Positions 505-60,687 are shown, counted from the stretch's first letter. The stretch: 64,000 bases of DNA from Candidatus Magasanikiibacteriota bacterium (GCA_016193335.1 JACPSK010000001.1:279424-343423); one strand, 5' to 3'. Translations and numbers: made by a program. Notes: generated by a model from the sequence alone, not told the origin.

Positions 505-1185
505 CTAGTTGAGATGTAGGATCTTCCGCAAAAGCGCCGGAACTTCTTTTTTGAAAAAAGACTTCACTTGGGGCCATGTAGCTTTGAAATAAATCTCCGG
601 TTCCGGGTCACTTTCCGCGTCCACAAAATACACCAAACTTTTCAGAATATGATGAAAATCGTGAGCAACAGACGGATACTGAATTTTTAATCTCTTAACG
701 GTATTTTCCAATGACTCAAGATGATTGGCGCACCAGTACAAATCAAAAAAATCTCTTTTCCTGCCACGCTGCGAGATAGCGACAATTTTCATGACCGCTA
801 TGTCCAGCGGATCCAAAATCCTTACTGTACCATGCCAGTGTGGTTTTTGTTTGGGAACAAAAAAGGGATAAGCGATAAAGCTAACCTTGGCTTTGAACAG
901 CTCACCGTAGATGGTATTTTCATCCTCGACTTGTATTGTCCAATCAGGGTTATCCAAAAATTTTGATAATAATCTCTTCATGTCAAAACTCTTTTTTTCA
1001 GTAAAAAAATCCAAATCAACAGATCTTCTATTCCCCGAATGGAGCGCAAGAGCAGTGCCTCCGGCCAAGTACCATTTAGACTTTTTAAGCCAATCTTGCT
1101 TTGACAAAAAATCAAAAGCTTTTTTGGTTTCTTTTGGTAATGTTTCAAAATGAAATGCTGCTAGCTGTGTGTTAGTAACTGCCAT
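505..1185 (-). CDS. Nucleotidyltransferase toxin, AbiEii/AbiGii family (type IV TA / abortive infection)
   Basis: 226 aa. Motif KWYLAGGTALALHSGNRRSVDLDFF is the pol-beta-type NTase signature typical of the AbiEii/DUF1814 family. Overlaps the upstream small ORF by 25 nt. Confidence 0.65.
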   Translation of the reverse strand: MAVTNTQLAAFHFETLPKETKKAFDFLSKQDWLKKSKWYLAGGTALALHSGNRRSVDLDFFTEKKSFDMKRLLSKFLDNPDWTIQVEDENTIYGELFKAKVSFIAYPFFVPKQKPHWHGTVRILDPLDIAVMKIVAISQRGRKRDFFDLYWCANHLESLENTVKRLKIQYPSVAHDFHHILKSLVYFVDAESDPEPEIYFKATWPQVKSFFKKEVPALLRKILHLN

Positions 1186-9074: not shown

Positions 9075-10352
9075 CTACATCCCCATCTTCTTTCGCAAAA
9101 AAGCGGGAATCTCCAAGTCTTCCTCAGGGTCTACCGAACTTTTGGAGTCTTCATGAGAAGAGGCACTTTTGGAAGGCAAGATGTCTTCCATGTCCATGAT
9201 CTTTTTGGTAAATTGAGGTTTTGGCTTGGCCGCGATCTCTTCTTCTTGGAGTTGTTGAGCCGAGTCTTGTTTCTTTTTTGTAAAAATTGCCGATCTGAAA
9301 CTGTTGCGTCTGGCCGGGTAAGAAGATTCAAATTCTCCGCCCGTATTGTAAGAGCCTTGTTCAGAAGATGATGAAAAAGCCCGTTCAGGTTCCCGCTTGT
9401 CGAAGCCAGTGGCGATAACCGTGATTCTGATATCTTCTCCCATCTGTTCGTCAATAACCGCTCCAAAAATAACTTTGGCATTGTCATCGGCTGAACTTGT
9501 AATAATTTTTGCGGCTTCCGCCACCTCTTGCATCCCAAGGCCACTGCCACCGGTTATGGTAAACAATATGCCCCGCGCCCCGTCTATGGAAATTTCCAAG
9601 AGAGGACTAGAGATGGCGGATTTGGCCGCTTCCACCGCACGGTTTTCGCCACTCCCTGTGCCGATGCCCATAAGCGCTGAACCGGTATCGCTCATTATCG
9701 TTTTTACGTCGGCGAAATCCACATTTATAAGACCCGGTACGGTAATCAATTCCGAAATACCCTGCACGCCTTGACGCAGAACGTCATCCACGATTTTGAA
9801 AGCTTCGAGTAAAGATGTTTTCTTGTCTATGATTTGTAAAATCCGATCATTATGTATGGTTATGATTGTGTCTACCTGTCCTGACAATTCTTCATAAGCC
9901 CGTTCGGCGATGTCTTTTCTTTGAGGTCCTTCAAAAGAAAACGGCTTCGTAACCACGGCAACGGTAAGTATCCCCATGTCCCTCGCTATTTCAGCGATGA
10001 CAGGACTGGCGCCAGAACCCGTGCCTCCGCCAAGACCGCAGGTGATAAAAACCATGTCAGTGTCTTTGAGCATTTCACGAACTTCGTTTTGAGTTTCCTC
10101 GGCGCTTCGCTTGCCCACTTCGGGATTCATGCCAGCCCCAAGACCCCTGGTAACGGTTTTGCCTATGTGCAATTTGTGAGGCGCGCTGTTGTGATGCAAA
10201 GCCTGCACGTCTGTATTCATGGCAATAAAATCAACTCCGCGTATGCCGCTCTTTACCATGCGGTCAACGGCAGAACCGCCGGAACCGCCTACTCCAATCA
10301 CTTTTATTTTTGCGAAGGTTTCGATTTCTGGTTTCACTTGTGGCATAAACAT
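9075..10352 (-). CDS. ftsZ: Cell division GTPase FtsZ
   Basis: 425 aa. [12 protein letters not shown], tubulin signature [13 protein letters not shown], disordered C-terminal tail. Confidence 0.9.
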
Positions 10353-10488
10353 TGGCTCAAATATTACTCCGAGTAAAAAAGGTATTCAATAAAAGATCGG
10401 AATTTACTCTTTGTATAAAATCTATATACAGTTTAGAGCTTTCACCCTATAGTGTCAAGAATGCAAGACGTGAGTGTGAATAAGTAAT

Positions 10489-10594
10489 AGGCCTATCCCT
10501 TCATAACACAATTTAAAAATCCCGAGGACGAGCGCGAGAACGAAGCCGGCTGACTCCGCAGACTTGCTAAAATATATTATGAATGGACAGGCTT
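10489..10594. repeat. Conserved ~105-nt palindromic element, locus A (imperfect long stem around 38-nt GC-rich core gaggacgagcgcgagaacgaagccggctgactccgca)
   Basis: Core is ~85% identical to 58090-58127. Flanking arms (aggcctatcccttcataacacaatttaaaaatccc / ...ttatgaatggacaggctt) are inverted repeats. ftsA-ftsZ intergenic. Confidence 0.5.
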
Positions 10595-10602
10595 GAATAC
10601 GT

Positions 10603-10647
10603 AAAAAATCAGGACTCTGCCAGAAAGCTGGCAGAGTCCTGATTTTG
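10603..10647. terminator. Bidirectional rho-independent terminator between ftsA and ftsZ (17-bp perfect stem flanked by A6 / T4)
   Basis: aaaaaa-tcaggactctgccag-aaag-ctggcagagtcctga-tttt. On the minus strand it is followed by U6, so it terminates ftsA transcripts. Confidence 0.6.
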
Positions 10648-10709: not shown

Positions 10710-11987
10710 CTACGGTATTAAAGATTTAAATATTTTATGAAAACGATCTCTGACCCCGTGGGTTAGTTTTAATGAAAAACGCTTTTTATTACCGGCCCGA
10801 TGAACCGAACTCCCCCATTTAACGAGACCGATGACAGGCGCAAAGGCGGCATCATTTATTTTGCTGGTAATGCCCTGAATACCAAATAATTGTCCTTGGC
10901 GAGCGGGCAGGGAAAGTTGTTCTTTGGACAGATCTACCAAACCGCCGATTTTAGAACCTCCACCGACAAAAGAAACACCGGCGGGCAAAAGACCCGCCCT
11001 GTCTATGGCGATAAGTTCTTGGTCTATTTTTTCCAAAATTTCTGCGGCACGGGCTTCTACGATTTCCGAAATATAATGAAAGTGAACAAGCTCGCTATGT
11101 TCAGCGCCAAGATCAGCCAGATCTATGGTTTCTTTCTTGCCCACAGACTTGCTGAGACAATGGCCATAGCGTATTTTAACTTTTTCCGCTATATCGATAG
11201 AAGTTTTGAGCCCCAAGGCCAAATCATTGGTAATGTGAGAAGAACCTATTGGTATAGCGGCAGTATGCATGATATCGCCTTCTTCGTAAACTACCAAAGT
11301 AGTGCTTGGCCCTCCGATATTCACTATCAAAACTCCAAGTTCCTTTTGCTTTGAATCGGCAACCACTTCTCCGGCGGCAAGAATTGAAAGTACAAAATCG
11401 TCGATATCCACGCCGGCGCGATACACCGCTTTTGTGATATTTTTCATGTGTGAGCTCAGCCCATAAATGATTTTTGTATCAACCTCCAGCCTTATGCCGG
11501 TCATGCCGACCGGATCTTTGATATGAGTTTGGCCATCAACACTATAACCCCTCGGCAACACATGAAGCACTTCATAATTCAAAGGACTGGCTATAGTGCG
11601 CGCGGCTTCCACCACTCGTTCCACATCATCGTCTGATATTTCGCCGTCAGAACGGCCCACGGCCACCACGCCTCTGCTTTCTTGAACGATAATTTTTGCG
11701 CCGCTTACCCCTACCCATACATGTTCAAGAGGCATGCCGACTACCCTTTCAGCCTGCTCGAGCGCGTTTGAGATTACTGAAACGGTGTCTTCGATACTCG
11801 TGATAAGACCTTTTTGTAAGCCTTCTGAGGGGACTTCTATAGCCGCGATGATCTGGAGAGAGCCTGGCTGGTCTGTATGGTAGACATATTGGCCCACAGC
11901 CAAACGAACAGAAGTAGATCCTATATCAAGACCTGTAATCAATTCCACTTTGTCTTTTCCGCGCGCCATGCCCATAGTTTGATTCAT
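10710..11987 (-). CDS. ftsA: Cell division protein FtsA (actin-like ATPase)
   Basis: 425 aa. ITGLDIGSTSVRLAVGQ N-terminal phosphate-1 motif, IVNIGGPSTTLVVYEEG, actin-fold layout. Confidence 0.9.
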   Translation of the reverse strand: MNQTMGMARGKDKVELITGLDIGSTSVRLAVGQYVYHTDQPGSLQIIAAIEVPSEGLQKGLITSIEDTVSVISNALEQAERVVGMPLEHVWVGVSGAKIIVQESRGVVAVGRSDGEISDDDVERVVEAARTIASPLNYEVLHVLPRGYSVDGQTHIKDPVGMTGIRLEVDTKIIYGLSSHMKNITKAVYRAGVDIDDFVLSILAAGEVVADSKQKELGVLIVNIGGPSTTLVVYEEGDIMHTAAIPIGSSHITNDLALGLKTSIDIAEKVKIRYGHCLSKSVGKKETIDLADLGAEHSELVHFHYISEIVEARAAEILEKIDQELIAIDRAGLLPAGVSFVGGGSKIGGLVDLSKEQLSLPARQGQLFGIQGITSKINDAAFAPVIGLVKWGSSVHRAGNKKRFSLKLTHGVRDRFHKIFKSLIP

Positions 11988-16200: not shown

Positions 16201-19200
16201 TTAAAGCGAACATTTTTCTTCGGGTGGCAGAGGCATATTTTCTTTTATCTGACAGATATCTGTTTCTATAGTCTCAACAGGCTCTATACCATAACTGTAC
16301 GTGCCATCAGCCGAGGGACTTACCAAAAAATTAAAGACATGCCAGTACGGAGCCAAAGAATTACTGCTGGAATCGGCCGCGTCTTTTATATTAAAAGAAT
16401 AATCAGGCTGATACAAAGAATAGAGCGGCACTTGTCCTTCGTGGTAAGAATACACATCAACTTGAAGATTGCTATTTGTGTATGAGCCGAGAACATCATC
16501 CACCGCTTCCACGAAAAACCCATAAGAATGCGGCTGAGCAGTAACGATTATTGACGGGTCTATGGTAAAGGATTGGATAAAAGTCTTAGCGGCTCCCGCG
16601 ATTTCATGAACAAACACGCCGTTTGTTCCTGTGCAGCCACTTCCATTCAATGGAGCCGGCATCCAATACTCCTCGCTAACCGACCCCTCATCTGTTTGCA
16701 CGGTCTTATCGGTTTTTACCATAAATTTGCATAATTTTTGCAAGGGGTTAACAGCAGATTTCGCGTCAGCATAACGAATGAGCGCTTTCGTGGGATCTCC
16801 GCCGGAAAATTTCGCCAAACGAGAACTGTACAAGCCGCCGGAAAATATGCCGCCTTTCTTGTTTTCTTCGTCAGTCCAGCGAAGCACTACGCGAACGACA
16901 CCCTCAGGCACTGCCGGCGAAACAACCAATTCATTGACTATTTTTTCTTTTTCTCCATTCACCGGATAATCGAAGAAATGTTTCTTTTTGGCTTTGTATT
17001 GAAGCATTGAACCGCTTATGCCGGTGGCGGTCTGTATTCCAAGCCTGTTAAACGATAAAGCATATTCTTCTTTGCATAAAAGGTTTGCTTCTATATTACT
17101 TTCAGAGGTTATGAAGAAAGGATTTGAAGGAGTTTTAACAGTAATTAATGAAACATCATCGGGTTCCAGACTGAAGAAAGCACCCAAACCACCCTCTGTC
17201 TTAAGCTGTTTCCTGCCAAGAGACAAATCATAATCCGCCAGTTTCGCCCAATTCAAACCGGAACCCAGACTCTGTGTGTCTCCCCCTGTCAAAGGATCCA
17301 CCATTGGGTTGAGCAGAGCTAAAAGAGGCTCCGGGCCAAAGGTCTTTACGCCGCAGGCCACGCATTTGTTCTCCGGCTCTCCCAGACAATCGGAGGAACA
17401 AACCCAAGACCCTTTGTTTGTATAGTCCGGCCCCGCGTCGCAGACCAGCTGTTTTGAGTTGGCTTGTGATTTCTCCGCGACACAAGAGTCATAAGCCGCC
17501 ACGCAATCTTGTTTGCATTGAACATCGGAAACCAAAACTTTTTCCATAAAGGCGTCCGCGTCCGGGTTGTCTTCCCACGGTATTAATTCAAAAGGCAAGG
17601 GCTGGGCCGAGGTCCCATATAGCTTATTGCAGAGTTCTTTTGCCGGATCAGTGTATTGATCCCATTTTGTATAAGAAGAAAAGGAAACATTTACCCCACT
17701 GTTGATCCCTCCGATGGGAAAACCATAATAAGTATCAGGCACACCCTCTGGCGCATGGCCATAGGCCACGCGTATCCGATTTTGTGGATTGGCCGTGTTT
17801 TTGCAAATGTAGCCATCCAGGGTTTCTTTGCCGTATTTCCAAGGGCTTTGAAAATGATCCTCGCAATCGTTCTCGCAAGTCTGCACCTGAGTTTCGGCAA
17901 GACAAATATCCTGGACCTCGGCCAAGGTTTGGGGAATCAAAATAGCAGTACTACTAAAGGGCTCGCATTGCTCCGGACCGCTAATGAGCCCGTCTCCGCA
18001 AAATTCTCCCGAATCAATCGTCAAGATATTTTTACAATCCAATGAACAGTAATTGCAGGACTTGCCATAGACCGGACTGCATTTTACGCCGTTTTTGTCT
18101 TTTCCAAGATCACAGGCTTCTCCAATGTCTTGTTCAATTTTCCCATTGCCGCACTCTGCTTTGGCGATTTCCACGGTGCAAGACGAGGAACAACCGTCAC
18201 CGTCTTTTTTGTTGCCATCGTCGCAAGCCTCTGTCCCTTCTTTTTTTCCATTCCCGCAGAGAAGCGTTACCTCTTCAACTTCACAATAAGTATTACAGCC
18301 ATCGCCGTTTGTTTTGTTGCCATCGTCGCAAGCCTCGTATTCATGTTGGATTGATCCGTCTCCGCAATAATTGCCCACGGCCTTGCAATTCGCGGCGCAG
18401 CTGAATTCAGAAGAAAAATGATAGCTTGGATCTTTTAAGCAAGTATCAACGCAGTCTGAATTCTGGGAACAAGAAAGCCCCAGCGCCTTGCCGTTTGAAT
18501 TGTAGCAGGCGCCGTTCGTGCAAACCAAATTGAAATTACATTCATTCACCGCGCCACAAAGCGTATTCGCGTATTTGCAATATCCCGGTTTCTGCGCGTA
18601 TTTTGCTTCAGCTATATCACAGACTTCTTTGCCCGCTTGCACCAAACCATCTCCGCAATAAGCGGGATGCAGACCCTGGCAGGCCCCGACTTTGCTTCCG
18701 TCCGATAGAGCGCTCTTGCTGTCCGCGCAATGTCCATAGGTTCCATTCAAAGCTCCGTCATCGCATTTTTCTCCTGATTCTACCACGCCATTGCCGCAGG
18801 TATATGAAGCCGTGCAAAGGCCATACTCCCATGTTTTGCAATCTTGGCTACATATACTTTTAGCGAAATTACCCGTGGGGCATTGACCCAAGCCGCCCTG
18901 AATCGCGCCCACACATTGATCAAACTCCCAAGTAACACTCTTGGCGCAAGTAAGCGTCTGCTGATTTATTGCAACATATTGATTGAAGCCATCTTGGTTT
19001 AAAATATTCGGATTCGCATTGTCTAAATCGACAATACCGAATGAAGTGGCATCGTAATACGAGGCTGTTCTGCATTCACTGTCAGAGGAACAACCAAAGG
19101 CAACAAGTTTCAAACCGCCAGGCTCCCAAGTGGAGACAAGCTGATCATAAATTATCTCTTGAGCATTAGAGGACTTCGAATTGATACAGACTCCCTCTTT

Positions 19201-22200
19201 ATTTGTAAGCAAAATTCCGGCTCCATCCAAGTCTACATATTTTGGACAGTCTACTGATGCATTTAAGCAGGCTATGCCCGGGCTGAGGACGCAAGACCCT
19301 TCTTTTTGAGCGATATTCCCTATCTTTGAATACAAAAGCTGCCCCGGCGGATCGCATTCTTCCGCAGGACCCACGATTCCATTCCCGCAAGTTTCGTCAA
19401 AAGGATTCACGGGCAGAGGTAAGGCGGACTGACACCATTGTTCATCAGTAAAAGACTGAGTATCTATGAGGCCGCTTACGATTTCATCGTCAAGATTGAA
19501 AAATTCCAGATTTCCATGCAACACATAGCCTTGAGTGTCCTTTTGATATTCATACTCATACACGCTCGAAAAAGCCGGACACATGTACAGTGACTTGCTT
19601 TCATTCCAACAAGTATTGGGGTCCTGCAAGACGCAAGAATCATTTTCACCGGGGCAATCTTGATCTGAAGCGCAACCCAGAAAAACGCCTTGCTCTTCGG
19701 AACTGCCGCCCAAACACAATCCGCAAGAAGACCAACGGTTGATAGGATCCACCGGCAAACCACCCACCGAGGCGGCCAAAGTAGCACTCCAGGAAGGCCA
19801 TTTTGAGACCGTGTAACCCGGGACGAAAGTGCCGGACTTAAGATCTCCTTTAAAAGTCGGCAGACCTTCATTGGTGCTGAAATGGGTATTTATGTTTTTG
19901 AGAGCTTGCTGAATGCCGGGCAAACGCGCCCAATCTCTGAAAAACTTTGTTTTTGCGTTGGAACAAACACCGCTCGTCGTCGGGAGACCTTGGGCATCAA
20001 CCAGAGGCGAACCGCCGGCATCTCTGCAGTCAAAATCCGTTTCACAGGTTTTATCGGTTATATCATTGGCGTCTTCGCCAAAACGAATATCAAAAGATCC
20101 GTCTGCCATGCAATATTTGTGATCGCTCAAATTTGTATTGAACTCAAGTGAAGATACGAGCTGTTCCAATACGTCTTTTGTAGAAGAATCAGCGTCCGGA
20201 TTGATACTCAATAAATATATGTTATTAAATATGTCGCTTCCCGCTCCGTCCTCCACGAAATTCAAGGCGTTGACATAATAATTGGTATTGTCGCTGAGAG
20301 CTTCATAATTCGCGACGTTTTTCTCTTGCATAGTCCCCAAATCTTCAAATTTTTCAGCGTACCAGGCGCCCAAGGATTTCGCTTTCCCTTCTTCATCCAT
20401 GTTTTTAAAAATTTGCAGTCCGACCACATCTTTATTTTCCGGTTTATCATTGAAAAAGAGAATTTTGCGCAAAACATCTTGAGCCAACAATTTTTTGCCT
20501 TCATCCACTTCAAAAGAAATATCAACGCAAGAATCCGTCACTTTCCAAGCGACAGAAGCGTTAACGCAACTTTCATTCTGAGCCTGGTCACAATCCGCGC
20601 TTGCGGAGCAAGATATATATGTTGAACCATAAAGCGGCGGATATTGTATATTCCCGTTCGCGTCCGTTTTTCTGCAAAATTTTTCCGTGGGCAATGACGT
20701 CAACTTGCAACCATTTGTTTTTAACTCGACGGCGCTCAATTCCAGCTTGCACTCAGGAGTATACATAGGATAGCCCGGACTCGTGTTGACAGCGGGAAGA
20801 TTATACAAAGGAACGCATTGGCTGTCTTCCAAGCAAGAAGTTCCGGGTGCCAGCAAACAATTCCCCGGAACTTTAATTTGGACGTCTTGTTCATTTTGGA
20901 TCTCAAATATATTGTTCAAAAACGGCAAGTCGTCCGAGGTGTCACCGGCGTTACCGGCGTCCGCGCAATAACTCATGCTAAAATTGTACTTCTCGTCTTT
21001 CCACGGCGACCATGAACCATCGGCTTCAAAAGCCGGCCAAGGGTTTTCACAAAAATTCGCGGTCAAATCCATGATTTCGGTAAATTTAAAGCCCTCTTGG
21101 CTGTCTTCGCCCTTGTCGGTTATGATTTCAGCCGCGACAATACCATTGATATGGCCCTCCACGTCTTTGGAGCTAATCGTATTGTCGGGTTTGTTGATAT
21201 CCGGAATATCAAAAATGATATTGTTCACCGGATCCCATTTCCAAACCCAATCATAGACATCTTTAATGGGCACGATAAACTGTCCGTTCGCGCTCTCCGC
21301 TTTTACATTGAAATCCTTTCCTTGGCCGGGTTTATTGAACAAATAGGAATCCGGATCCACTTGAATATCTTTTATCTTGCAAATTTCATTTCCTGTTTTG
21401 AAAACCCAAATATCATCTCGAACCAGCAAGAAAGAATCCGCACTTTTAATGCCCACCCCGTCAATATCTCGTATGCCGGTTAAGCCACCATTCAAGAGGA
21501 CGCCATAAATACTGTTTTCATCCAAAAGCTTTCCTATATATATGGAAACAAGAGAAGCTTTAAGCGGCGTCTCACCGGCTACTGTTATTGTTTTGGCTTC
21601 AAAAGAAACCGGGATTTCACCCGCGCACCAGGTTTGTATATCGGTTAAATCTTTGATTTCAAAATAAGAAAGCGCGAAAGCTATCTTATTGAACAGCATC
21701 ACGAAAAAGTCTTTTATTTGTTTCCACATTTGATAAAAAAATCCGCCGTCGCTCTTGAGAACCAAAGTATTTATACCCATGGCATCCTGAACTTTTTCAG
21801 TAATGTCGTATCCGCCCGAACTTGCACAGTCATAGCCGGCCTCGGGATGTGCTTTTACTATGACTATATTATTATTGAGCGAGTCAACTTCAATTTCTTT
21901 GTTAAAACGCGCTTCTATATATGTGTTTCTGCATACGGCATTGTCAGGATCTCCGATCCCTGCTTGACCGGGAGGGTACTCTTCATATCTCAAAGGCCGA
22001 AGAGCACAGCAAGAATTATAAGCCACACCATAGAGATTGCCCCCATTCCCCCCGTTCACTACGCAATCATTATATTGTTCACTGACATCCTGAACTTTAA
22101 ATTCGGTGTACCCGCATTGAAGCGTATAATCTCCTGAACCGGAAGCATCATTGGGGATGCCAGGATTGCCATCTAACTTCACAGTGATGTCCGTGTTTTG

Positions 22201-25200
22201 CTTTCCATCCGTGACTGTGCCTTTCCCTATGGCGGTCACTACCTGCACCGGGCTACTGCTCGTAAAGTTGAAATTCAAAGTTTCCGCCGCTTTCTCGCAT
22301 TGACCATACTCTCCAAGACCAACTTTTCCTCCTGTTGCAAGTCCGTCGCCGCAAATTGATGAAGAAAAATATTTGGGTGAAGAACCAAGGAGCTGACATT
22401 CATCAGAGCAGCCTTCTAAACCTTTTTGACAACGGAAACCATTTTGTTGCGCGCTTGAATATTCGGGTATATTGGTGGAACAAATGTTTCCTTGGAGAAG
22501 ACAACGGGATCCACAGGCCGCTTTCGCCGCGTTTGTCTCTATCATAACATTTTCAGCGTAGTTACCGGCCACGTACACTTTGTTATTAATGACTTCGCAT
22601 TCTTCTCCATCCTCTATAACCGCATTGCCACAGATACTGAGGGATTCTTGACAGGCTTCTGCTTCTTCTTTGCTTTTGTTTGTTTTTTGTTCGCACCAGT
22701 AAGTAGCCAGCTGGGTGCCTATGTGTAAGCAGGTATCAGTACAAAATATATTTGACTGAGATTTATCCGTAGCGTCTTCGTAACTCAAGGCCATGTCACA
22801 GGCCTCGCCAAGACCCACCTCTCCGTCCCCGCACCACGATTGCCCCACCAACTCTGAATTGAACTGGCTGTAAGGCAGAGAACCTGTCAGCGCAGCGCCT
22901 TCTGGCGTGCTGGAACTGAATAGACAGTGCGTATCGCAGACACCCTCAGCCCATTTCAAGGTTCCGTCAGCGTTCTTTTCATTCAAATCACAATCTTCAC
23001 CCGGATCTTTTACGCCATTCCCGCAGAGAGGAAATGTTAATAAGACCGCGTTCGATAAATCACTGCCTTTCGGCAAACATAAAGGAGAACAAAAATCAGA
23101 CCATCCGAAACCGGTATGAAAATTGCTCACTGAAGCGACACTATTCCCATCCAGTTCATCTTTGTCTTCCGGGGTATACCAATCATACCCATAGTCCCAT
23201 TTATTCAATTTTTGTCCGTATTTGCTACATTCGTTTGGAGAACTGTAAGGAACAACGCCGTATTTTGTCTTCTCTCCTATGTTATAGGCAGTAAATGGAT
23301 CCGGTTCTACTTTGAGATCATTGGCCGCGCAAGGCGTGGCATCATTTTTTGTCTTAAATATCCATTCAAAAGGCTGGAGAGCTTTCCCTTGTTTAAAACT
23401 TCCATCCCCATTGATGAAATCAATGGAACGAATGGCAGAACTGAGACTCACCTTGTAATAGGTATTTTTGTCCAGAGAATCCGGATCCACCACCAATTTT
23501 AATTTGTTACTGCTATCAATATCATAAGCAGTGTTTGATATCTGCGTGGGATTGACGCAATTCGCGTTGTCACATTTGAACAAAACGAAACCCGCCTCAT
23601 AGGTGGACGGATCCATGTGTCTGTTGAAATGCGCGGCAATACTCGCGTTGATGCAAGATTCTGAACAATTTGGTTCCCAATAGATAACTTTCGGATCCCC
23701 AAGTTGGATATTAAGCAGACTGTAAGGCGACAAAAGCGTAGTAAGAGCTCCGGCCCCTTCTGTGGCTTCTTTGATAACAATTTCAGCCTCTGCTTCGATA
23801 TGAACAGGGGTAATGGCTGTATCTTCTTTTGCTCTGGCGATCCCTCTCGTATCTGTGTATTGAGGCGGATTTGGCCAATTATGAGCCGTAGCTTTGACAA
23901 GATCAGAACTGTCCCACACCCAACCTTTGCCGTCCACCGGAAGGACCGAACATTCCTGATCTCCATACCCGTTGATGAAATAATGCAAAGGATTAGTCGG
24001 AACCGCGAATATATCTTCCATATCTTGAACCGGATACTTGGGGTCCTGAACAGTACCCAGTTTGTCGGTGCTGTATTGAATGGGATTAACACCGGCATTG
24101 CTCAATACGCATAATTTATCATTGGTTTTGAAAGCGAAACAATAGGCAGTGCCTTCGCCGCAGGGTCTGGTTTCCTTGAGTGAACCGCTCTGGATCACCG
24201 ATTCGCCGAGAAGCTGAACGGTTTCCTGTGATTTGATATCTTTGGAAAGTTCAACATTGTACCAAGTATTGGGCGATAAATACGTCTCAGGGCTGTCATT
24301 TTCTTTTATAATCAAGATCTCATTCTCCAATTTCAAATCAAGGTTTGTTAGCTGTTCTTTTTTTGCGGCGCAATCCATGGCTCCGTCTTCAGCAGTATCG
24401 CAGACATAGACCTTCACATTATTGGAAGTGAGGGTGCCCGTATCCATGGACATACTGAAACGAACCGCGATACTCGCGTTTTTGCAGGAAGCTTCTCCCA
24501 ATTTCAGATTCTGTTCCCAAGGAGTTGGAGATGGAAATTCCTGCTGAATGTCAAGTTTATTCCAATTCGCCACATTACAATCCTCAATCACATAAGGACG
24601 GTTGGGTATGAGGCCCGTGGTAAAACGCCATACATATCCCGCGTCACGGGTTTCTCCGGGGCACACATAACCATTACCTATCCATTGACCAGCCCCCGGT
24701 CCTTCGGTACAGCAGGTATATCCGGTACCCGGAGCTGTGGCTCCCGTTTCTCTGCAATCTGAAACAGTGTAGAGCACTCCGTTGCTTACTTGCTCTGAAT
24801 CTGATTTTACTTTTATAAGTCCGCTCTGCATGGAAAGACCGGTACCCACATCTACAGGAAGCAATGTCCTAACCAAGGTATCAACAGACTGCAAAATGAC
24901 ATTTTCGCCGCCGAATTTGTCTTGCTCAGAATTCAGCCAGGTGTTGAGCGTATCGGCTTGAGCCCCGTTCTGCCAATAATACACCGTTGGATCGGTGGAA
25001 AAACCATAACCTCTGATATACAAACCCTCGCTCTCTTTGGGCAAAGGAGCCGGGCCTTTATTCGGGTCGAGCAAACAGATGCTGGGTAAAGGCAGACCTT
25101 CATATACTCCAAAAGTATCCAGGCCATTTGAATGCAAAGGCCCGTCGCCTCTTTGAACAATAAGATAATAATTCCCCGCGATCATAGAATCCGGAACCTG

Positions 25201-28200
25201 CACTATAACCTGTGTGTCAGACCAGGTGTCTTTGCAATACGCAGGAAGAGTGGCGTTGGCTTGTGCACAGGTTCCGTCATCCGGACTGCATTCATGACCC
25301 TCTTCGCTTGTAAGATATACGATGCCCGTACTTTCTCCAAAATTCTTTCCAAAAATCGTTATGTAGCTCCCCGGAGTGCTTGACACCGGATCTATGCTTT
25401 CAATGATTGGAGCAAGATCTTTCAAATCTCCGGCCAAAACTTGAAAAGGAACCGCGTTGCTTGTTTTCCCTCCCACTTGCACGGTAACCGGGACCTTGCC
25501 CACGGCAGTATTAAAAGGAACGAGGGACTGTAAGAAATTATCAGTCCATTTATCTTGGTCTACTTGGGCTATGACGCCGCCAAAATCCAGGTTACTCGTC
25601 GCACCCTTTATATTGCCAAAGGATTTGCCATAGGCCTGAATGTCGGTATTCGGCAAAGCGGAAGAAAATTTGTATGAATCTGCCGTAACTACGGCGCAGA
25701 GACCGGGCCGAACGGTTTCATTTTTTATGAAATACCCCGGCTTGCCGCCTGTAATCTGGTCATATTCTTGTTTTGTCAAGTAGCCTTTCGCGGCCGCGTC
25801 CGGGTCTGGGACAGGGTTAGGCCCAAATGCATCGTCGCTTAAATCAAACAAACTCGGGTCGTCTCCCCTGCTCACGCGTATGGCGCTTATCTGGCCCAGG
25901 GCTCCATAGGATCCAAAAACTCCGGTCTGATTGAATAAAGGATTGCTTTCCTTGCTTATTTGAATCGGCGCTTTGCCGTTGACAATATTTACCGGATTTT
26001 GATCGAAAAAACGCAGATACAAGCTAGGCTCAAGAGAAAGGGCCGCGTCTTTGTAATGATCCAAACCTGCCAGAGGATCGTACAAAGCCGCTACCTGGCT
26101 ATCTGACAATGGGGATTCGTACATCAAAAATTCATCTATACTGCCCTTAAAATACAGAGGGGTGAATATAGAACGTTTGCCCAAGTTAATCCCATTTACA
26201 TTTGATTGGGTCAGAGAGCCGGCGCTGAGAGCTGTGGTCTTGAGGACTTTCCCATCAAGATACAAAGCTATTTGTCCGAGAACACTGTCAAAACTTGCCA
26301 CTACATGGTGAAAAACACTGGGAGTAGCAAAGGGAGATGAGATACGTCTGTATTTTGACACGGTCGGATCGAACATTTCGAAATTTATATGCTTCGACAA
26401 ATCAGGGAGCGTATTGAGATACAAACTCCAGCCTCCTCCCGCTTGGCTGAGCCCGCCTCCGGCTACGACTTCAAGACCAGTCTTGCTCCCCTCTCCTCTT
26501 ATCCAAGCGCTTACTGAAAAAGAAGCGGGCGCCTGCTTATATATAGGACTCGGGTTTATACTCAAAGAATCATCCACGCCATCAAAAGCAATGGCGTTAC
26601 CTTTTGGGGCGGGGTTGGGAACTTCCACCACTACAAAACTATCCTGCCAGGTGCTCTTGATCACTTCACTGCACTCCGCCAATTTTGCTTCAATCCATTC
26701 GCTATCTTCATATTCTCCGCTGTCATTTAAATCGGTGGCAAATTCAACTTTCCCGATTTTGGAACCGAAATAATTACCCAATATACTTATCCAATTCCCG
26801 GAAGCCCCGTCCTGCGGAACAATATCCGTGATTTGAGGATATTGCACGCAGGTGTTGTTCACACACTTTAGTCCGGCAGAGCAAGGAGTTGATTCATCAC
26901 AGTAGGCTCCTTCTTCCGCCCCACAAGGTCCGCCGGCGTCAACGTCAGTCTCCCCTTTATCTTTGTCAAATTCTCCGTTGGCGCAATATCCGGGATACAC
27001 GAAAAAATAGGTCTGTTTTTCTGAACTGTTGTGGTCTATATCAAACACCGCGGCTGTAACAATATACTTTGTTTTCGCCGGAATGCCTGAGCCCAAAAAT
27101 AAAGGATAGCTGAAGGTAAAAGGGTTTGCCGATTCATTTTTGTAAGGACCGTCGTAAATGTCGAACACATCTGCCCCATTCTCCGAAGCAATATACAGAT
27201 GGACGTATCCAAGACCAGAATCATCTTCAACGGTAAATTCTATCGGATATGTATTGTTGCTATAGAGCTTGATGCCAGGCTCAACGCTCGGGTTCCCGTC
27301 TGGCAATACAAACTGTATGCCCGTTTTATAAACAGGCGCGGTTTTATCATTAATCTTCTGGTTAACCCCGAAATCGACTTCTTTGAATGTCTCCACGCCG
27401 CAGACAGTACCCTCTTCCAATTTCTCGCCATTAGTCGATTCTATTTCTTTGGGAACTTCAACAAGATATTTGCTATCTGAAAGCGGCAGGCAAGTTTGTC
27501 CTTCTGTTTTGTTTTCATCCGCGCAGTTCTGCTCTTCTCCGGCGTACTTATATCGAGCCTGAATTACTTTTTTACTGTCATCAACAAAGCTGATATCAAA
27601 TAAAGTTGTTATGTCTTCTTTGGTTAATTCATTGTTCCCTCTGTATATTTTCAGAGCGTCTCCCGGAGCAGTGCCCAAGGCCTTACTAAAGACCGCGCGG
27701 ATCACGATATTATTCATGTCTGTGACATCTTGGCTCGGCGTAATGCTTTTCACCACAAAGTGCTGTTCAAAACAAGAACCATAGCCACCCCCGCCGCCAT
27801 TACACTCGGCAACCGTTTGGCAGCCCCCGCCCCCGCCTCCTCCACCTGCGCCAGTGGCCTCCGCGAGCTTGTCCAAGACAAATTGGGTGATGGCGAGAGA
27901 AGACAAAATAATAGCAAGGCCTATAGTGCCATTTATCAAAATTTTCCGCGCTTGCAAAATCTTGTCTTCACTGCCTCCGGCGGTCATGTACACATATCCG
28001 CCGTACAATATAATACCAAGGGCTATGACCCCCAAAAGCCCAAGAAAAATTCGGATTATTTTTGCCACGGTAACGCGAATATCCTGGACTTCCAAATTCA
28101 CGGTTTCGTTTATCTTGGCCACGCCAAAGGTATCGCCTTGCGCCATGGCAAAATCGCTCCACGCAAAAGAAAATAGACCATAAAATAGAAACACGAAAAA

Positions 28201-28272
28201 ACATGGTAGGCCTATTTTGTACAATATTGTGCGAAGAGCTTTGTTCATAGGTAAAACGGAAAGTTTATTCAC
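16201..28272 (-). CDS. Giant (4023 aa) cell-surface adhesin-like protein. N-terminal signal plus two-helix membrane hairpin (TrbC/VirB2-pilin-like), then LamG/ConA-like, IPT-like, Ig-like and many Myxococcus-type Cys-rich (CGDG...ECDDGN..GDGC) repeats
   Basis: Single uninterrupted 12,072-nt ORF whose start overlaps the upstream gene stop by 8 nt. Motifs read from the translation: IIRIFLGLLGVIALGIILYGGYVYMTAGGSEDK...IGLAIILSSLAI, Gly8 linker, LamG block (SFSVSAWIRG...LYLDGKVL), and tandem CGNGKKEGTEACDDGNKKDGDGCSSSC-type repeats (~18150-18420). Confidence 0.8.
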   Translation of the reverse strand: MNKLSVLPMNKALRTILYKIGLPCFFVFLFYGLFSFAWSDFAMAQGDTFGVAKINETVNLEVQDIRVTVAKIIRIFLGLLGVIALGIILYGGYVYMTAGGSEDKILQARKILINGTIGLAIILSSLAITQFVLDKLAEATGAGGGGGGGGCQTVAECNGGGGGYGSCFEQHFVVKSITPSQDVTDMNNIVIRAVFSKALGTAPGDALKIYRGNNELTKEDITTLFDISFVDDSKKVIQARYKYAGEEQNCADENKTEGQTCLPLSDSKYLVEVPKEIESTNGEKLEEGTVCGVETFKEVDFGVNQKINDKTAPVYKTGIQFVLPDGNPSVEPGIKLYSNNTYPIEFTVEDDSGLGYVHLYIASENGADVFDIYDGPYKNESANPFTFSYPLFLGSGIPAKTKYIVTAAVFDIDHNSSEKQTYFFVYPGYCANGEFDKDKGETDVDAGGPCGAEEGAYCDESTPCSAGLKCVNNTCVQYPQITDIVPQDGASGNWISILGNYFGSKIGKVEFATDLNDSGEYEDSEWIEAKLAECSEVIKSTWQDSFVVVEVPNPAPKGNAIAFDGVDDSLSINPSPIYKQAPASFSVSAWIRGEGSKTGLEVVAGGGLSQAGGGWSLYLNTLPDLSKHINFEMFDPTVSKYRRISSPFATPSVFHHVVASFDSVLGQIALYLDGKVLKTTALSAGSLTQSNVNGINLGKRSIFTPLYFKGSIDEFLMYESPLSDSQVAALYDPLAGLDHYKDAALSLEPSLYLRFFDQNPVNIVNGKAPIQISKESNPLFNQTGVFGSYGALGQISAIRVSRGDDPSLFDLSDDAFGPNPVPDPDAAAKGYLTKQEYDQITGGKPGYFIKNETVRPGLCAVVTADSYKFSSALPNTDIQAYGKSFGNIKGATSNLDFGGVIAQVDQDKWTDNFLQSLVPFNTAVGKVPVTVQVGGKTSNAVPFQVLAGDLKDLAPIIESIDPVSSTPGSYITIFGKNFGESTGIVYLTSEEGHECSPDDGTCAQANATLPAYCKDTWSDTQVIVQVPDSMIAGNYYLIVQRGDGPLHSNGLDTFGVYEGLPLPSICLLDPNKGPAPLPKESEGLYIRGYGFSTDPTVYYWQNGAQADTLNTWLNSEQDKFGGENVILQSVDTLVRTLLPVDVGTGLSMQSGLIKVKSDSEQVSNGVLYTVSDCRETGATAPGTGYTCCTEGPGAGQWIGNGYVCPGETRDAGYVWRFTTGLIPNRPYVIEDCNVANWNKLDIQQEFPSPTPWEQNLKLGEASCKNASIAVRFSMSMDTGTLTSNNVKVYVCDTAEDGAMDCAAKKEQLTNLDLKLENEILIIKENDSPETYLSPNTWYNVELSKDIKSQETVQLLGESVIQSGSLKETRPCGEGTAYCFAFKTNDKLCVLSNAGVNPIQYSTDKLGTVQDPKYPVQDMEDIFAVPTNPLHYFINGYGDQECSVLPVDGKGWVWDSSDLVKATAHNWPNPPQYTDTRGIARAKEDTAITPVHIEAEAEIVIKEATEGAGALTTLLSPYSLLNIQLGDPKVIYWEPNCSESCINASIAAHFNRHMDPSTYEAGFVLFKCDNANCVNPTQISNTAYDIDSSNKLKLVVDPDSLDKNTYYKVSLSSAIRSIDFINGDGSFKQGKALQPFEWIFKTKNDATPCAANDLKVEPDPFTAYNIGEKTKYGVVPYSSPNECSKYGQKLNKWDYGYDWYTPEDKDELDGNSVASVSNFHTGFGWSDFCSPLCLPKGSDLSNAVLLTFPLCGNGVKDPGEDCDLNEKNADGTLKWAEGVCDTHCLFSSSTPEGAALTGSLPYSQFNSELVGQSWCGDGEVGLGEACDMALSYEDATDKSQSNIFCTDTCLHIGTQLATYWCEQKTNKSKEEAEACQESLSICGNAVIEDGEECEVINNKVYVAGNYAENVMIETNAAKAACGSRCLLQGNICSTNIPEYSSAQQNGFRCQKGLEGCSDECQLLGSSPKYFSSSICGDGLATGGKVGLGEYGQCEKAAETLNFNFTSSSPVQVVTAIGKGTVTDGKQNTDITVKLDGNPGIPNDASGSGDYTLQCGYTEFKVQDVSEQYNDCVVNGGNGGNLYGVAYNSCCALRPLRYEEYPPGQAGIGDPDNAVCRNTYIEARFNKEIEVDSLNNNIVIVKAHPEAGYDCASSGGYDITEKVQDAMGINTLVLKSDGGFFYQMWKQIKDFFVMLFNKIAFALSYFEIKDLTDIQTWCAGEIPVSFEAKTITVAGETPLKASLVSIYIGKLLDENSIYGVLLNGGLTGIRDIDGVGIKSADSFLLVRDDIWVFKTGNEICKIKDIQVDPDSYLFNKPGQGKDFNVKAESANGQFIVPIKDVYDWVWKWDPVNNIIFDIPDINKPDNTISSKDVEGHINGIVAAEIITDKGEDSQEGFKFTEIMDLTANFCENPWPAFEADGSWSPWKDEKYNFSMSYCADAGNAGDTSDDLPFLNNIFEIQNEQDVQIKVPGNCLLAPGTSCLEDSQCVPLYNLPAVNTSPGYPMYTPECKLELSAVELKTNGCKLTSLPTEKFCRKTDANGNIQYPPLYGSTYISCSASADCDQAQNESCVNASVAWKVTDSCVDISFEVDEGKKLLAQDVLRKILFFNDKPENKDVVGLQIFKNMDEEGKAKSLGAWYAEKFEDLGTMQEKNVANYEALSDNTNYYVNALNFVEDGAGSDIFNNIYLLSINPDADSSTKDVLEQLVSSLEFNTNLSDHKYCMADGSFDIRFGEDANDITDKTCETDFDCRDAGGSPLVDAQGLPTTSGVCSNAKTKFFRDWARLPGIQQALKNINTHFSTNEGLPTFKGDLKSGTFVPGYTVSKWPSWSATLAASVGGLPVDPINRWSSCGLCLGGSSEEQGVFLGCASDQDCPGENDSCVLQDPNTCWNESKSLYMCPAFSSVYEYEYQKDTQGYVLHGNLEFFNLDDEIVSGLIDTQSFTDEQWCQSALPLPVNPFDETCGNGIVGPAEECDPPGQLLYSKIGNIAQKEGSCVLSPGIACLNASVDCPKYVDLDGAGILLTNKEGVCINSKSSNAQEIIYDQLVSTWEPGGLKLVAFGCSSDSECRTASYYDATSFGIVDLDNANPNILNQDGFNQYVAINQQTLTCAKSVTWEFDQCVGAIQGGLGQCPTGNFAKSICSQDCKTWEYGLCTASYTCGNGVVESGEKCDDGALNGTYGHCADSKSALSDGSKVGACQGLHPAYCGDGLVQAGKEVCDIAEAKYAQKPGYCKYANTLCGAVNECNFNLVCTNGACYNSNGKALGLSCSQNSDCVDTCLKDPSYHFSSEFSCAANCKAVGNYCGDGSIQHEYEACDDGNKTNGDGCNTYCEVEEVTLLCGNGKKEGTEACDDGNKKDGDGCSSSCTVEIAKAECGNGKIEQDIGEACDLGKDKNGVKCSPVYGKSCNYCSLDCKNILTIDSGEFCGDGLISGPEQCEPFSSTAILIPQTLAEVQDICLAETQVQTCENDCEDHFQSPWKYGKETLDGYICKNTANPQNRIRVAYGHAPEGVPDTYYGFPIGGINSGVNVSFSSYTKWDQYTDPAKELCNKLYGTSAQPLPFELIPWEDNPDADAFMEKVLVSDVQCKQDCVAAYDSCVAEKSQANSKQLVCDAGPDYTNKGSWVCSSDCLGEPENKCVACGVKTFGPEPLLALLNPMVDPLTGGDTQSLGSGLNWAKLADYDLSLGRKQLKTEGGLGAFFSLEPDDVSLITVKTPSNPFFITSESNIEANLLCKEEYALSFNRLGIQTATGISGSMLQYKAKKKHFFDYPVNGEKEKIVNELVVSPAVPEGVVRVVLRWTDEENKKGGIFSGGLYSSRLAKFSGGDPTKALIRYADAKSAVNPLQKLCKFMVKTDKTVQTDEGSVSEEYWMPAPLNGSGCTGTNGVFVHEIAGAAKTFIQSFTIDPSIIVTAQPHSYGFFVEAVDDVLGSYTNSNLQVDVYSYHEGQVPLYSLYQPDYSFNIKDAADSSSNSLAPYWHVFNFLVSPSADGTYSYGIEPVETIETDICQIKENMPLPPEEKCSL

Positions 28273-30433
28273 CTGAAACAGGGCTTACTTCTTCTGAAGA
28301 CAAAAGGTCCAGACAAACAGGGGTACTCGGCTGAGCCGTAACCGAATCATCCGTGGTAACGCAAGCAGTGTCAACCGTTCCGGTCTCAAGCACTTCGTCT
28401 TCATTTAATTGTTGAAGCTTTACATCAAAACAATCGGCCCCGGTTCCAGTGATCGGGTTCCCTTCCGTGTCTTCTTTATATGCGCATACTATGGATTCTC
28501 CTTTGGCGCCAGACTTGGGCCCCCTGCCCGGATACAAACAATTTCCATTTGAAGAAAGCACGTTTGAATCCGCATAAGGAAAATAATAAAAATCCTGATC
28601 ATTGGGACCAAAAACCCTGTGCAAAAGACTGGCTACGGTAGAGTTCGGATAATCAGGCACCGCAAGTTTCAAAGGATTATCCAGATCTTCAGATTCAGGT
28701 TTTGACCAAAATTCGAGAACTGTTCCCGGAATAGGGGTTACATTATCAGGAAACTCGCGCATTCTAATATTGTAAAGAGTTCCGAAAAGCATTCTTCTAT
28801 TGAAATACAAAGTAACCGGTTCGTCTTTGACCACGTTTTCTTTGTCAACCCCGGGAAAAACACGTTGGAGGTAGGGCGAACTCCGGTCTATTTTATTGAG
28901 GACGACAAAAGACCACCAATAGTTGTCTTCTTGAGCTCCTTCAGCCCGTCCTTTTGCCACTGCGTTTGGGGTTGGCCCGTCCAAAGCATTGCCAGACATA
29001 TCCATGACGCCGCTGAATGGTTTGCTTTCAAATGATTTGTTGTTTGTCGGATTAATTAATTCAGCCGAATGAACCACAATGCTATATTGATTTTTCGAGG
29101 TATCAGTACAAGCAGTTTCTCCGCAATCAAGGGGCAAACAATACAGCGGATTGCCGCAACTGTTTTGTCCGCAGACTTCGTCAGAATAAAATTCCACTGT
29201 TTTGTATCCATTGCTTATCTTCCATTCACCGGTTGGTACAGCCTCGCCCGCTCCATCCAATGTATTGAAAACCAAATTGTTGTGTGGGACCGCGGCTGTT
29301 GTCAAACCCTGTACCATAGTGGGATCCACGGCTTCATTGAAATGAATTTGGACATACTCATTTCGAGCCGTTTCAGTATTGGGATCTGGATTCACGGATA
29401 CCACAAAAGGAGGAGATTGGTCCAAAGTGCCGTCAGTTTGAAAATCCCACGTATAGTATTCGGCGCCAAGAAGGTCGCCGAATACCCCAATTTGTTTGCC
29501 GTTAACCGGTGTTTTTTTGAGAATACTGTTGTTCAATTTCACCGTATGCCATACTTCTTCGGCTTCTTTGCCCAGATGATCAAAGGGCTTTATAACTAAA
29601 GTATATACATTTCGAGCGTCAGCGTCCTCGTACAAAGCTTGGGCTGAGGCGTTTTTGAGCTGTTTGATTTCGGCCTGGGTATCGAAAATTCCCACGGCTT
29701 CTGTTTTGAGATGATCACAATCTTTCTCATAACTGAAATTGGGACTTTCTGTAAGGCAATCTCCATAATACGGCTCAGAAAAAACGTCATCACAAAGAAC
29801 CGGAACAGCTTCAGATCCCCAGCAGGTTTTATTAAAATTGTCCATCACTGACGCAGGGTCAATGGGTTCAAAAAAAGTAATCGCTATCTTTGTATTCCGC
29901 TTTACTCCTGTTTGGTCCCTAAACGGATAATGATCTTTCACCACCTTGCCCAAAGCCCCGCTTCCGGTGAAAGTATCAAATACCGGAGCTCCTTCGCTCT
30001 GTTTCGCGGAAGGATTTATGGCTTCGGTAAGCGCGTTGATGACCCATTGCGCTATAGCAAGAGAAGACAAAATAATGGCAAGCCCGATAACCGCGTTCCT
30101 TAAAATGGTTTTGCCGGCCGTGACTTTTTCTTCATTTCCCGCCGCGGTCATAATAGTATAACCGGCGTAGATGATAAGAATCACGGCAATAAGGCCAAGT
30201 AAACCGAGAACCGCCCGTATAATGCGCGCGGCTATCACTCGTATGTCAGCATTCGCCAATTGCACTTCTTGGCCAAATTGGCCAAGACCAAAGGTGTCTG
30301 ATTGGGCGGACACAGTGCCTCCTCCATACGCCAAACTCAGGCCCAAAAAAAGAAAAACCGCGACTCCAACTATAACGGCATGGAGCGCAGTTTTGTTACT
30401 GTACTTTCTGAATGTGAATATCCTTGGCAGCAT
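28265..30433 (-). CDS. 722-aa surface protein paralogous over its N-terminal ~135 aa (signal plus membrane hairpin module) to the giant protein, followed by Ig-like/beta-rich extracellular domains
   Basis: Conserved N-terminal region: DTFGLGQFGQEVQLANADIRVIAARIIRAVLGLLGLIAVILIIYAGYTIMTAAGNEEK...IGLAIILSSLAIAQWV versus the giant protein's DTFGVAKINETVNLEVQDIRVTVAKIIRIFLGLLGVIALGIILYGGYVYMTAGGSEDK...IGLAIILSSLAITQFV. Confidence 0.7.
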   Translation of the reverse strand: MLPRIFTFRKYSNKTALHAVIVGVAVFLFLGLSLAYGGGTVSAQSDTFGLGQFGQEVQLANADIRVIAARIIRAVLGLLGLIAVILIIYAGYTIMTAAGNEEKVTAGKTILRNAVIGLAIILSSLAIAQWVINALTEAINPSAKQSEGAPVFDTFTGSGALGKVVKDHYPFRDQTGVKRNTKIAITFFEPIDPASVMDNFNKTCWGSEAVPVLCDDVFSEPYYGDCLTESPNFSYEKDCDHLKTEAVGIFDTQAEIKQLKNASAQALYEDADARNVYTLVIKPFDHLGKEAEEVWHTVKLNNSILKKTPVNGKQIGVFGDLLGAEYYTWDFQTDGTLDQSPPFVVSVNPDPNTETARNEYVQIHFNEAVDPTMVQGLTTAAVPHNNLVFNTLDGAGEAVPTGEWKISNGYKTVEFYSDEVCGQNSCGNPLYCLPLDCGETACTDTSKNQYSIVVHSAELINPTNNKSFESKPFSGVMDMSGNALDGPTPNAVAKGRAEGAQEDNYWWSFVVLNKIDRSSPYLQRVFPGVDKENVVKDEPVTLYFNRRMLFGTLYNIRMREFPDNVTPIPGTVLEFWSKPESEDLDNPLKLAVPDYPNSTVASLLHRVFGPNDQDFYYFPYADSNVLSSNGNCLYPGRGPKSGAKGESIVCAYKEDTEGNPITGTGADCFDVKLQQLNEDEVLETGTVDTACVTTDDSVTAQPSTPVCLDLLSSEEVSPVSGE

Positions 30434-32730: not shown

Positions 32731-32759
32731 AATGAAAATTTTTAATTTATAATTTATAA

Positions 32760-32874
32760 TTTTTAAACAATTTTTATTCTCTTAATTTCTAATGAGTGAG
32801 CCCACACGGTACCTTTCGGACAAGGATATTTTGTGTAGAGGATAAAAATTACATCATTGGAAATTGTTTAAAAA
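32760..32874 (-). mobile_element. MITE-like element, copy L (14-bp TIRs tttttaaacaattt / aaattgtttaaaaa), inverted relative to copy R
   Basis: ~93-95% identical to the reverse complement of 37286-37400, with perfect terminal inverted repeats. Sits between the hisS start and the lepB stop. Confidence 0.5.
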
Positions 32875-32881
32875 TTAAAAA

Positions 32882-33481
32882 TTACAAATTGTATTCCGGA
32901 AGATTGCCGAATGAAGTGAGACGACTGAATGGCCAGCCTCTGAACACGACTCTCCCAACGATATCATTCACAGAAATAGGGCCGAAACGACGAGAATCAT
33001 AGCTCGCGTCTCTGTTGTCGCCAAGTACAAAGTACTGATCCGGACCCAAGGTAATCGAAACTGAACCGGGGGTTTGTTCTTCGAGATACGATTCTTGGAT
33101 AATAACACCCTGCGGGTATTCATTGTTATAAACCACAACTTTGTTCCCCTCCACTTTTATCCGTTCTCCGGGCAAACCTATGATACGCTTCAGATAATTG
33201 TCCGAAGCCACGGGCGCTCTGAAGACAATGATTTCTCCCCGCTCCGGCGCGCGGAAACGATAGCTGATTTCGTCTATGATCAAATAATCACGTTCATAAA
33301 AAGTGGGTTCCATCGATTGTCCTTTTACATAAAAGGGCTTGAACAAAAAGTAGCGTATAAGAACGATGGTAACGCCGGCGAGCAAAGTTACTTTGATGAG
33401 CTCCAAAAAAAAGAGCCCCAATTTATTCAGAAAACCGCGCTCCGTAATATTCACTTGTTCGCGATCATCTTCTTTTTTCAT
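32882..33481 (-). CDS. lepB: Signal peptidase I
   Basis: 199 aa. N-terminal TM, Ser box GQSMEPTF, GDNRDASYDSRRFGPI box. Confidence 0.85.
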   Translation of the reverse strand: MKKEDDREQVNITERGFLNKLGLFFLELIKVTLLAGVTIVLIRYFLFKPFYVKGQSMEPTFYERDYLIIDEISYRFRAPERGEIIVFRAPVASDNYLKRIIGLPGERIKVEGNKVVVYNNEYPQGVIIQESYLEEQTPGSVSITLGPDQYFVLGDNRDASYDSRRFGPISVNDIVGRVVFRGWPFSRLTSFGNLPEYNL

Positions 33482-34738: not shown

Positions 34739-34750
34739 ACATTTTTAAAA

Positions 34751-34883: not shown

Positions 34884-34902
34884 TTATAAATTGTAATTTT
34901 AA

Positions 34903-36584: not shown

Positions 36585-36608
36585 GATGACCTCCCTTGTT
36601 GTCTGACT

Positions 36609-60673: not shown

Positions 60674-60687
60674 TTTCCTCTCTCCTA

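Follow-up and report, generated by a model that had tools for sequence, protein, structure and literature searches.

The two hairpin-forming loci described here are best explained as copies of a MITE-like, non-autonomous transposable element of ~106–111 bp from Magasanikbacteria (Patescibacteria/CPR), a reading to which we assign a probability of roughly 0.6. The element would be built of terminal inverted repeats of ~34 bp around a GC-rich centre of 38 nt. The family is undescribed, yet of an ordinary kind. Exact protein matches assign the window to contig CAYOIR010000003.1 of MAG GCA_964404105.1, whose FtsZ and RecG carry the NCBI name Candidatus Magasanikbacteria. In the initial annotation of the window, i.e., the whole 64,000-nt stretch of DNA analysed, the loci were taken for a functional RNA or a protein-recognised cruciform, with a MITE-like repeat named as the contrary outcome; it is largely the latter that was found, with several copies, a target-site duplication, an empty site and decay. 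Mobile elements are considered scarce in the tiny genomes of CPR bacteria; here, a miniature transposon family would be documented with its insertion, empty site and decaying copies.

The window contains three, possibly four, copies at two or three loci. Copy A (10488–10593, plus strand, 106 bp, moderately decayed) consists of a left arm (10490–10523), a centre (10524–10560) and a right arm (10561–10593) and is located between ftsZ (9075–10352, minus strand) and ftsA (10710–11987, minus strand). Copy B (58053–58163, plus strand, 111 bp, pristine) has arms at 58055–58088 and 58128–58161 around a centre at 58090–58127; recG starts on one side of it (57938, minus strand), and an aldehyde-dehydrogenase gene stops on the other (58292). 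Both loci are present where the initial annotation had placed them. Copy C (57954–58052, plus strand), full length and heavily decayed, was recognised by alignment and by nhmmer, using a profile made from A and B alone (E = 2.4e-7, model positions 6–107). Copies C and B stand in tandem, head-to-tail, 2 nt apart. The centre of copy C carries a 7-nt deletion and many substitutions, so the centre is not protected in every copy. The intergenic segment at 43868–43945 (minus strand) is a possible fourth copy, F, falling short of an established one: it would be very decayed, with most of the centre deleted, and its local score is 36 against 17.6 ± 2.9 in shuffles, with a rough window-wide chance expectation of ~0.5. 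Profile searches revealed no further copies in ~16 kb of flanking sequence of the same genome, and nhmmer searches with centre and whole-element profiles found none in ~1 Mb of loci, including ~170 kb from Magasanikbacteria. Solo arms were looked for, and none were found. A match at 36.9 kb was rejected as a further copy, as it sits within a Nudix-like coding region. An unlisted ORF of ~140 aa at 36690–37111 (minus strand) is Nudix-hydrolase-like by eye and fills most of an apparent 545-nt gap beside tRNA-Val; it adjoins a 152-aa protein (36159–36617) with a DnaA C-terminal helix-turn-helix domain alone.

The centre common to A and B reads GAGGACGAG-Y-GCGAGA-R-CGAAGC-S-GG...TCCGCA, and its 23-nt 5' part, GAGGACGAG-Y-GCGAGA-R-CGAAGC, has exactly two occurrences in the window, where shuffles give 0.00. 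The shared centre is thus real, but the 38-nt consensus as originally written fits B only, because A is one base short; four substitutions further separate the two centres. The outer arm motif GCCTAT.CCTTCA.AACA is, as had been noticed, shared by the four arms of A and B and restricted to them in the window. Copy B is a perfect inverted repeat, with 34 of 34 arm positions complementary (33 bp had been claimed) around a centre of 38–39 nt; folded as RNA it reaches −66 kcal/mol (z = −12). The arms of copy A are imperfect, as described. When the 34 pairs of B are mapped onto A, 20 are Watson–Crick, five are A.C, six are other mismatches and three are gaps, and ~10 positions beside the centre are essentially unpaired. 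The statement that the inner stems pair with their own partners therefore holds for B and not for A. The arms of C are degraded, and the three copies stand at different stages of decay (B perfect, A moderate, C heavy).

The sequence of copy A is identical across all 10 independent assemblies covering the site. Coming from either flank, four independent k=31 assemblies made from other read sets end exactly 30 nt inside the arm of B. This is expected for a perfect repeat longer than k, so copy B is not an assembly artefact; such hairpins break k-mer assemblies of CPR genomes. An invertible switch was rejected, since the orientation is the same in 7/7 profile-searched assemblies covering A and the centre is without promoter-like sequence.

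At ftsA–ftsZ, copy A is flanked by an 11-bp direct repeat, with the left copy (TGAATAAGTAA) at 10477–10487 and the right copy (TGAATACGTAA) at 10594–10604, identical to the left at 10 of 11 positions. In the orthologous spacer of Magasanikbacteria GW2011_GWA2_56_11 (hereafter GWA2), the duplicated sequence is held once, which makes that spacer the empty site. In gene orientation, GWA2 has terminator-GATTTTT-AGTTATACA-CACAC-15 nt-TTGACA, whereas the window has terminator-GATTTT-TTACGTATTCA-[element]-TTACTTATTCA-CACTC-15 nt-TTGACA. Starting at the ftsZ promoter, the spacers can be aligned as far as the duplicated sequence, and the reconstructed empty site, GATTTTT-TACTTATTCA-CACAC, is colinear with GATTTTT-AGTTATACA-CACAC of GWA2, both lying 15 nt from TTGACA. 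Removal of the element and one repeat thus restores colinearity with the ortholog, the classical signature of transposition with an 11-bp duplication. At 363 nt, the ftsA–ftsZ spacer is longer here than in the closest relative that was available (164 nt; FtsZ 78% identical) and in GWA2 and a near-identical strain (126–184 nt); the element is absent from the orthologous spacers of these relatives. A 19-nt "arm remnant" to the left of A was rejected, as this sequence is native and also conserved in GWA2. One SRR4343435 contig (locus L116) starts exactly at 10487, the edge of the left duplication; this could reflect either an empty allele, i.e., presence–absence polymorphism in the population, or a coverage break. 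Polymorphism at A was rejected, since the assemblies covering A are all identical and a single contig break is the only hint.

The surroundings of copy A were described correctly at the outset. A strong terminator, a 19-bp perfect hairpin with an A-run and a T-run (10605–10646), lies beside the element, and the insertion point directly follows the T-run of this ftsA terminator. On the other side, ftsZ has its own promoter, TTGACA-17-TAAACT (10430–10458, minus strand), which is conserved in GWA2; copy A is 30 nt upstream of its −35 box. Copy A thus inserted just past the ftsA terminator, duplicating 11 bp of the target, and the copies occupy dead space, from a terminator or gene end to the next promoter. 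Upstream of ftsA, a 4023-aa ORF (16201–28272) is followed by a 722-aa protein (28265–30433) with T4SS-pilin and Ig-like domains; the arrangement is kept in relatives, where proteins of 4170–4325 aa carry T4SS_pilin and Laminin_G_3 domains.

Staggered cuts are what DDE-type enzymes make, and the 11-bp duplication implies such cuts. The element would be mobilised in trans, its transposase being supplied from another part of the genome. Neither a transposase or integrase nor an autonomous partner with matching ends was found in ~80 kb (the window and its ~16 kb of flanks). This counts against a MITE, as does the restriction of the clean duplication to A: at B and C, the flanking matches reach at best 7/10 or 7/11, at offset positions, and in GWA2 the best copy, L081, has no target-site duplication, while copy L041 is rearranged.

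The lack of a clear duplication at B and L081 would suit a DNA hairpin or cruciform serving as the site of a recombinase or an HUH-type single-strand transposase, rather than of a cut-and-paste DDE enzyme. The centre would then be a recognition or nicking module, one arm would template the other, and new copies would land beside an older end. The tandem of C and B, 2 nt apart, is consistent with this, as are the perfect or near-perfect arms of B and L081, the strand bias of arm mismatches discussed below, and the hexamer-like, iteron-like repeats GAGGAC GAGTGC GAGAGC GAAGCG that can be read beside a short GC hairpin. Nevertheless, this explanation is unlikely. Target-site duplication is not made by HUH-type single-strand transposition or by site-specific recombination, and copy A has both the duplication and the orthologous empty site. 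Moreover, the loop of the small hairpin, where one would look for the nick, varies more than any other part of the centre, and no HUH, recombinase or relaxase gene is located nearby. The originally proposed protein-recognised cruciform can be retained in a narrower form, as a protein-recognised DNA hairpin within a mobile element.

At the recG locus, copy B does mark the island boundary that had been claimed for it: it adjoins a two-gene block of 59–62% GC in a 45% GC genome. This block (58164–61783) encodes a 793-aa aldehyde dehydrogenase and a DeoC-like aldolase and has copy B at one edge and tRNA-Arg (61784–61856) at the other. The sequence TTGTAAAGGTATA (61767–61779), inside the tRNA-Arg end, matches the right arm of B at 12 of 13 positions in the same orientation. 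The two may form a direct repeat bracketing the GC-rich block; a match of this kind occurs in 6.5% of random windows. In two relatives (RecG 64–67% identical), there is no element upstream of recG, other genes precede it after ~73 nt, and the aldehyde-dehydrogenase/DeoC block is absent from this place. In the recG promoter (57939–57953), the −10 box is of the extended type (TATGCTACAAT), as it is in two relatives, where it is conserved. As copy C ends 4–5 nt upstream of this box, the element would have replaced the sequence at the former −35 position.

The differing arms had been interpreted as compensatory variation. In the long stem together with the small GAGA hairpin, five pairs indeed differ on both sides among A, B and C, against a mean of 1.7 in shuffles, of which 3/500 reach five, and 1–3 in slid controls. 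Two of the five separate B from A and C. With three related sequences only, selection on pairing is inseparable from descent from different master copies, and the variation is attributable to such descent or to template switching. Template switching homogenises the arms of inverted repeats and mimics compensatory substitution (PMC8794818, PMC8604942, PMC7202029). For a MITE-like element, the matched arm changes may reflect different master copies, and template switching during replication may have added homogenisation of the arms; selection on an RNA would not be required. Like the elements considered here, template-switched inverted repeats show changes in both arms and perfect long arms without selection on pairing, but template switching is a mutational mechanism and not an element family, and it leaves the dispersal and the target-site duplication unexplained.

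The remaining arm mismatches are strand-biased. On the GAGGACGAG strand, the transition mismatches of A and C comprise 10 A.C and two G.T, and the ratio becomes 11:2 with GWA2 copy L081, the extra A.C being scored by eye. Owing to these one-sided A.C mismatches, the hairpin is much more stable on the opposite strand; copy A folds at −41.7 kcal/mol there and at −24.2 kcal/mol on the GAGGACGAG strand. The bias could be due either to mutational skew or to single-strand selection. Its direction is the same as that of the G-over-C excess on the minus strand of the region, so it provides no evidence for an RNA.

Template switching can also create and extend hairpins (PMC8794818, PMC13100816), and the loci might be inert palindromes, in which a GC-rich remnant was wrapped in inverted repeats by this process and then duplicated. 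Such a remnant might stem from the final codons of a gene since lost, GAG GAC GAG YGC GAG ARC GAA GCS GGN TGA (EDECESEAG*). The three-base periodicity and in-frame TGA of the A and B centres suit this origin, as do the location of two of the four A/B substitutions at third codon positions and the decay of the copies. We consider it very unlikely. Across the copies no ORF or start codon is conserved, three of six substitutions fall at third positions, which is not significantly above one third, and neither the dispersed copies with a target-site duplication nor the conservation of the centre across species is explained by it.

The centre was searched for by exact pattern in one genome per species (185,579 species). 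The search returned ~100 chance matches in GC-rich genomes and two further true copies, both in GWA2. Among 241 million metagenome records, the centre was found only in the GWA2 lineage, and the scans gave no matches in viral contigs, phages or plasmids; since exact matches were required, diverged centres would have escaped. Several relatives are closer than GWA2, and the one available for reading has no element in ~36 kb of sequence. The family is therefore patchy and of low copy number.

Between the window and GWA2, whose FtsZ proteins are 71% identical, the first 26 nt (5') of the centre are identical at 26/26 positions in B and both GWA2 copies; across the two genomes, the arms resemble each other no better than shuffles do. 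Within the window, the arms of A, B and C are clearly homologous; in GWA2, a marginal relationship is seen between the left arms of its two copies. Copy L081 (490–590 of its locus) has ~27 bp of paired arms, and copy L041 has lost its right arm but kept an intact centre with a 7-bp closing stem. The contrast between a conserved centre and differing yet pairing arms is thus stronger across genomes than the initial annotation could know. The identity of the centre in B and the GWA2 copies and its loss in A and C indicate that active or recent copies keep the centre and old copies lose it. As only 4–6 copies are known, in two species, all statistics are weak.

This pattern is the unusual point of the family and also counts against a MITE: in typical MITEs, the termini are best conserved and the interior least, whereas here the middle is perfectly conserved between two species whose terminal repeats cannot be aligned. 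Because of this conservation, a functional RNA was kept as a rival. The centre would form a three-way junction closed by the variable long stem, with a UGC-GAGA-GCG hairpin and a GCGGG-loop-CUCCGC hairpin. Its role would be to regulate in cis, to bind a protein or to cleave itself as a ribozyme, and a mobile element might carry it. Besides the 26/26 identity between unrelated arms, the persistence of the centre of L041 on a short closing stem and the excess of two-sided changes, a GNRA-like GAGA loop within the centre points in this direction, and the order of junction lengths (9, 2–3, 1), read off the sequence, resembles that of hammerheads. Hammerhead and other three-way-junction RNAs likewise place conserved junction nucleotides within helices of free sequence; however, the hammerhead core (CUGANGA ... 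GAAA, U-H) is absent from the centre, and no ribozyme model matches it at E ≤ 10.

The remaining evidence makes a structured RNA quite unlikely. The Rfam scan suggested for these loci gave no relevant family: at the gathering threshold, the whole window yields four tRNAs only, and at E ≤ 10, copy B and the GWA2 centre match only generic microRNA-hairpin models and a 10-nt GAGA-loop entry. RNAalifold with four copies reveals no covarying pair in the two internal hairpins, both of which are broken in A, and the centre alone is no better than shuffles at conventional thresholds (z = −2.0, −1.8, −0.5 and −1.3). Relative to the neighbouring genes, the GAGGACGAG strand of A, B and C is antisense and that of both GWA2 copies is sense, i.e., its orientation to transcription is opposite in the two genomes. 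Copy A lies behind two terminators without a conserved promoter, no promoter shared by A and B was found, and the scan called no intrinsic terminator at A or B on either strand. Decay of the copies, absence from orthologous sites and the flanking duplication of A likewise argue against the functional RNA originally proposed. At A and B, the element, antisense to its neighbours, precedes the ftsZ and recG promoters, and it regulates neither the ftsA–ftsZ operon nor recG; for annotation, a false lead is removed. Other candidates were also rejected. DGR, CRISPR/TIGR, attC, parS/dif, guanidine-III and hammerhead assignments lack their defining motifs or partner genes and have no Rfam match, and a tRNA-derived centre or att site was discarded, as the centre has no significant similarity to the four tRNAs.

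For a MITE-like element, the 26/26 identity of the centre across species with unalignable arms suggests that the centre is probably a cis-acting site needed by active copies, which could bind the transposase or an architectural host protein. If so, this would be an unusual mode of transposon recognition; if the centre were an RNA, it would be a new motif. In a more ambitious version, the centre would be an undescribed functional module, either a small three-way-junction RNA, possibly self-cleaving or protein-binding, or the cis-recognition module of a transposon defined by its middle, spreading between Magasanikbacteria lineages on palindromic carriers with free arms. We regard this as improbable.

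Among known systems, the closest analogue is the Correia element of Neisseria, an inverted repeat with a conserved core that binds IHF and RNase III (PMC2649163; reviewed in PMC2229807 and PMC3184786). Correia elements (CREE/NEMIS) are also non-coding, intergenic and ~100–150 bp long, and their terminal inverted repeats enclose a conserved core; on transcription they fold into long hairpins, and they insert near promoters and terminators and vary in presence between related genomes. Their core is an IHF site, and such a role of the centre described here would be by analogy only. Unlike the present element, with its 11-bp duplication and 3–4 copies in 64 kb, they duplicate TA and reach hundreds of copies. 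There is no sequence similarity, the 26-bp Correia terminal repeat differs from the one found here, and here the termini differ completely between species while the core does not. The element is therefore outside the Correia family, and the resemblance is functional. For the host, the hairpins of the present element, when transcribed, may act as transcription barriers or RNase III substrates.

ERIC/IRU, RUP, BOX and Rickettsia palindromic elements are similar in being imperfect palindromes of ~100–130 bp, dispersed in intergenic regions in either orientation, at varied stages of decay and without an autonomous partner nearby. They differ in belonging to other phyla, in being lineage-specific and in their unrelated sequences; compared with them, the very low copy number and the cross-species centre are unusual here. 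No report of ERIC/BOX-type small palindromic repeats from Patescibacteria was found in the literature. REP/BIME sequences, mobilised by RAYT, are GC-rich palindromes of 20–40 nt with a GTAG end, high copy number and no duplication; they were rejected because the arms here are AT-rich, 34 bp long and without GTAG, copies are few and A carries a duplication. PATE derived from IS200/IS605 have no terminal inverted repeats, no duplication and a distinct subterminal hairpin at each end, and they were rejected because one long palindrome makes up the whole element here and copy A has an 11-bp duplication.

Other repeats can be noted in the window. A second palindromic family (32715–32890, 34744–34899 and 37241–37435) is AT-rich and ~150–190 bp long, with three copies in the vicinity of tRNA-Ile and tRNA-Val; conserved arms (TTTATAATTTTTAAACAATTTTT / AAAAATTGTTTAAAAATTATAAATT) surround a variable centre, the opposite of the element studied. 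A third hairpin-forming repeat (AACCCCCTCTTACATCTCCCCCTTAGTAAAGGGG...) occurs at 53363–53460 and 54170–54203, with 35-nt inverted arms in one copy. A 300-nt direct repeat, 94% identical (46944–47243 and 50400–50699), lies inside two large neighbouring genes, 46010–48448 (endonuclease/exonuclease/phosphatase family) and 49550–51913; it looks like a shared domain or recent gene conversion.

At the beginning of the window, the 3' end of tRNA-Asp (TCCCGTCCGGTCCGCA, 236–251) is directly repeated at 430–445, with a diverged copy at 1458–1479, and a separate terminator hairpin follows each of them. The sequence in between contains a GC-rich segment of ~150 nt (288–445) and an AbiEii toxin gene (505–1185, minus strand) with a DUF6922 partner. 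A match of the centre to 288–301 (p = 0.02, 24 tests) was marginal and was rejected. A permissive Rfam scan of positions 1–1750 returned tRNA only. Judging by these repeats, the region 177–1513 looks like small islands integrated at tRNA-Asp.
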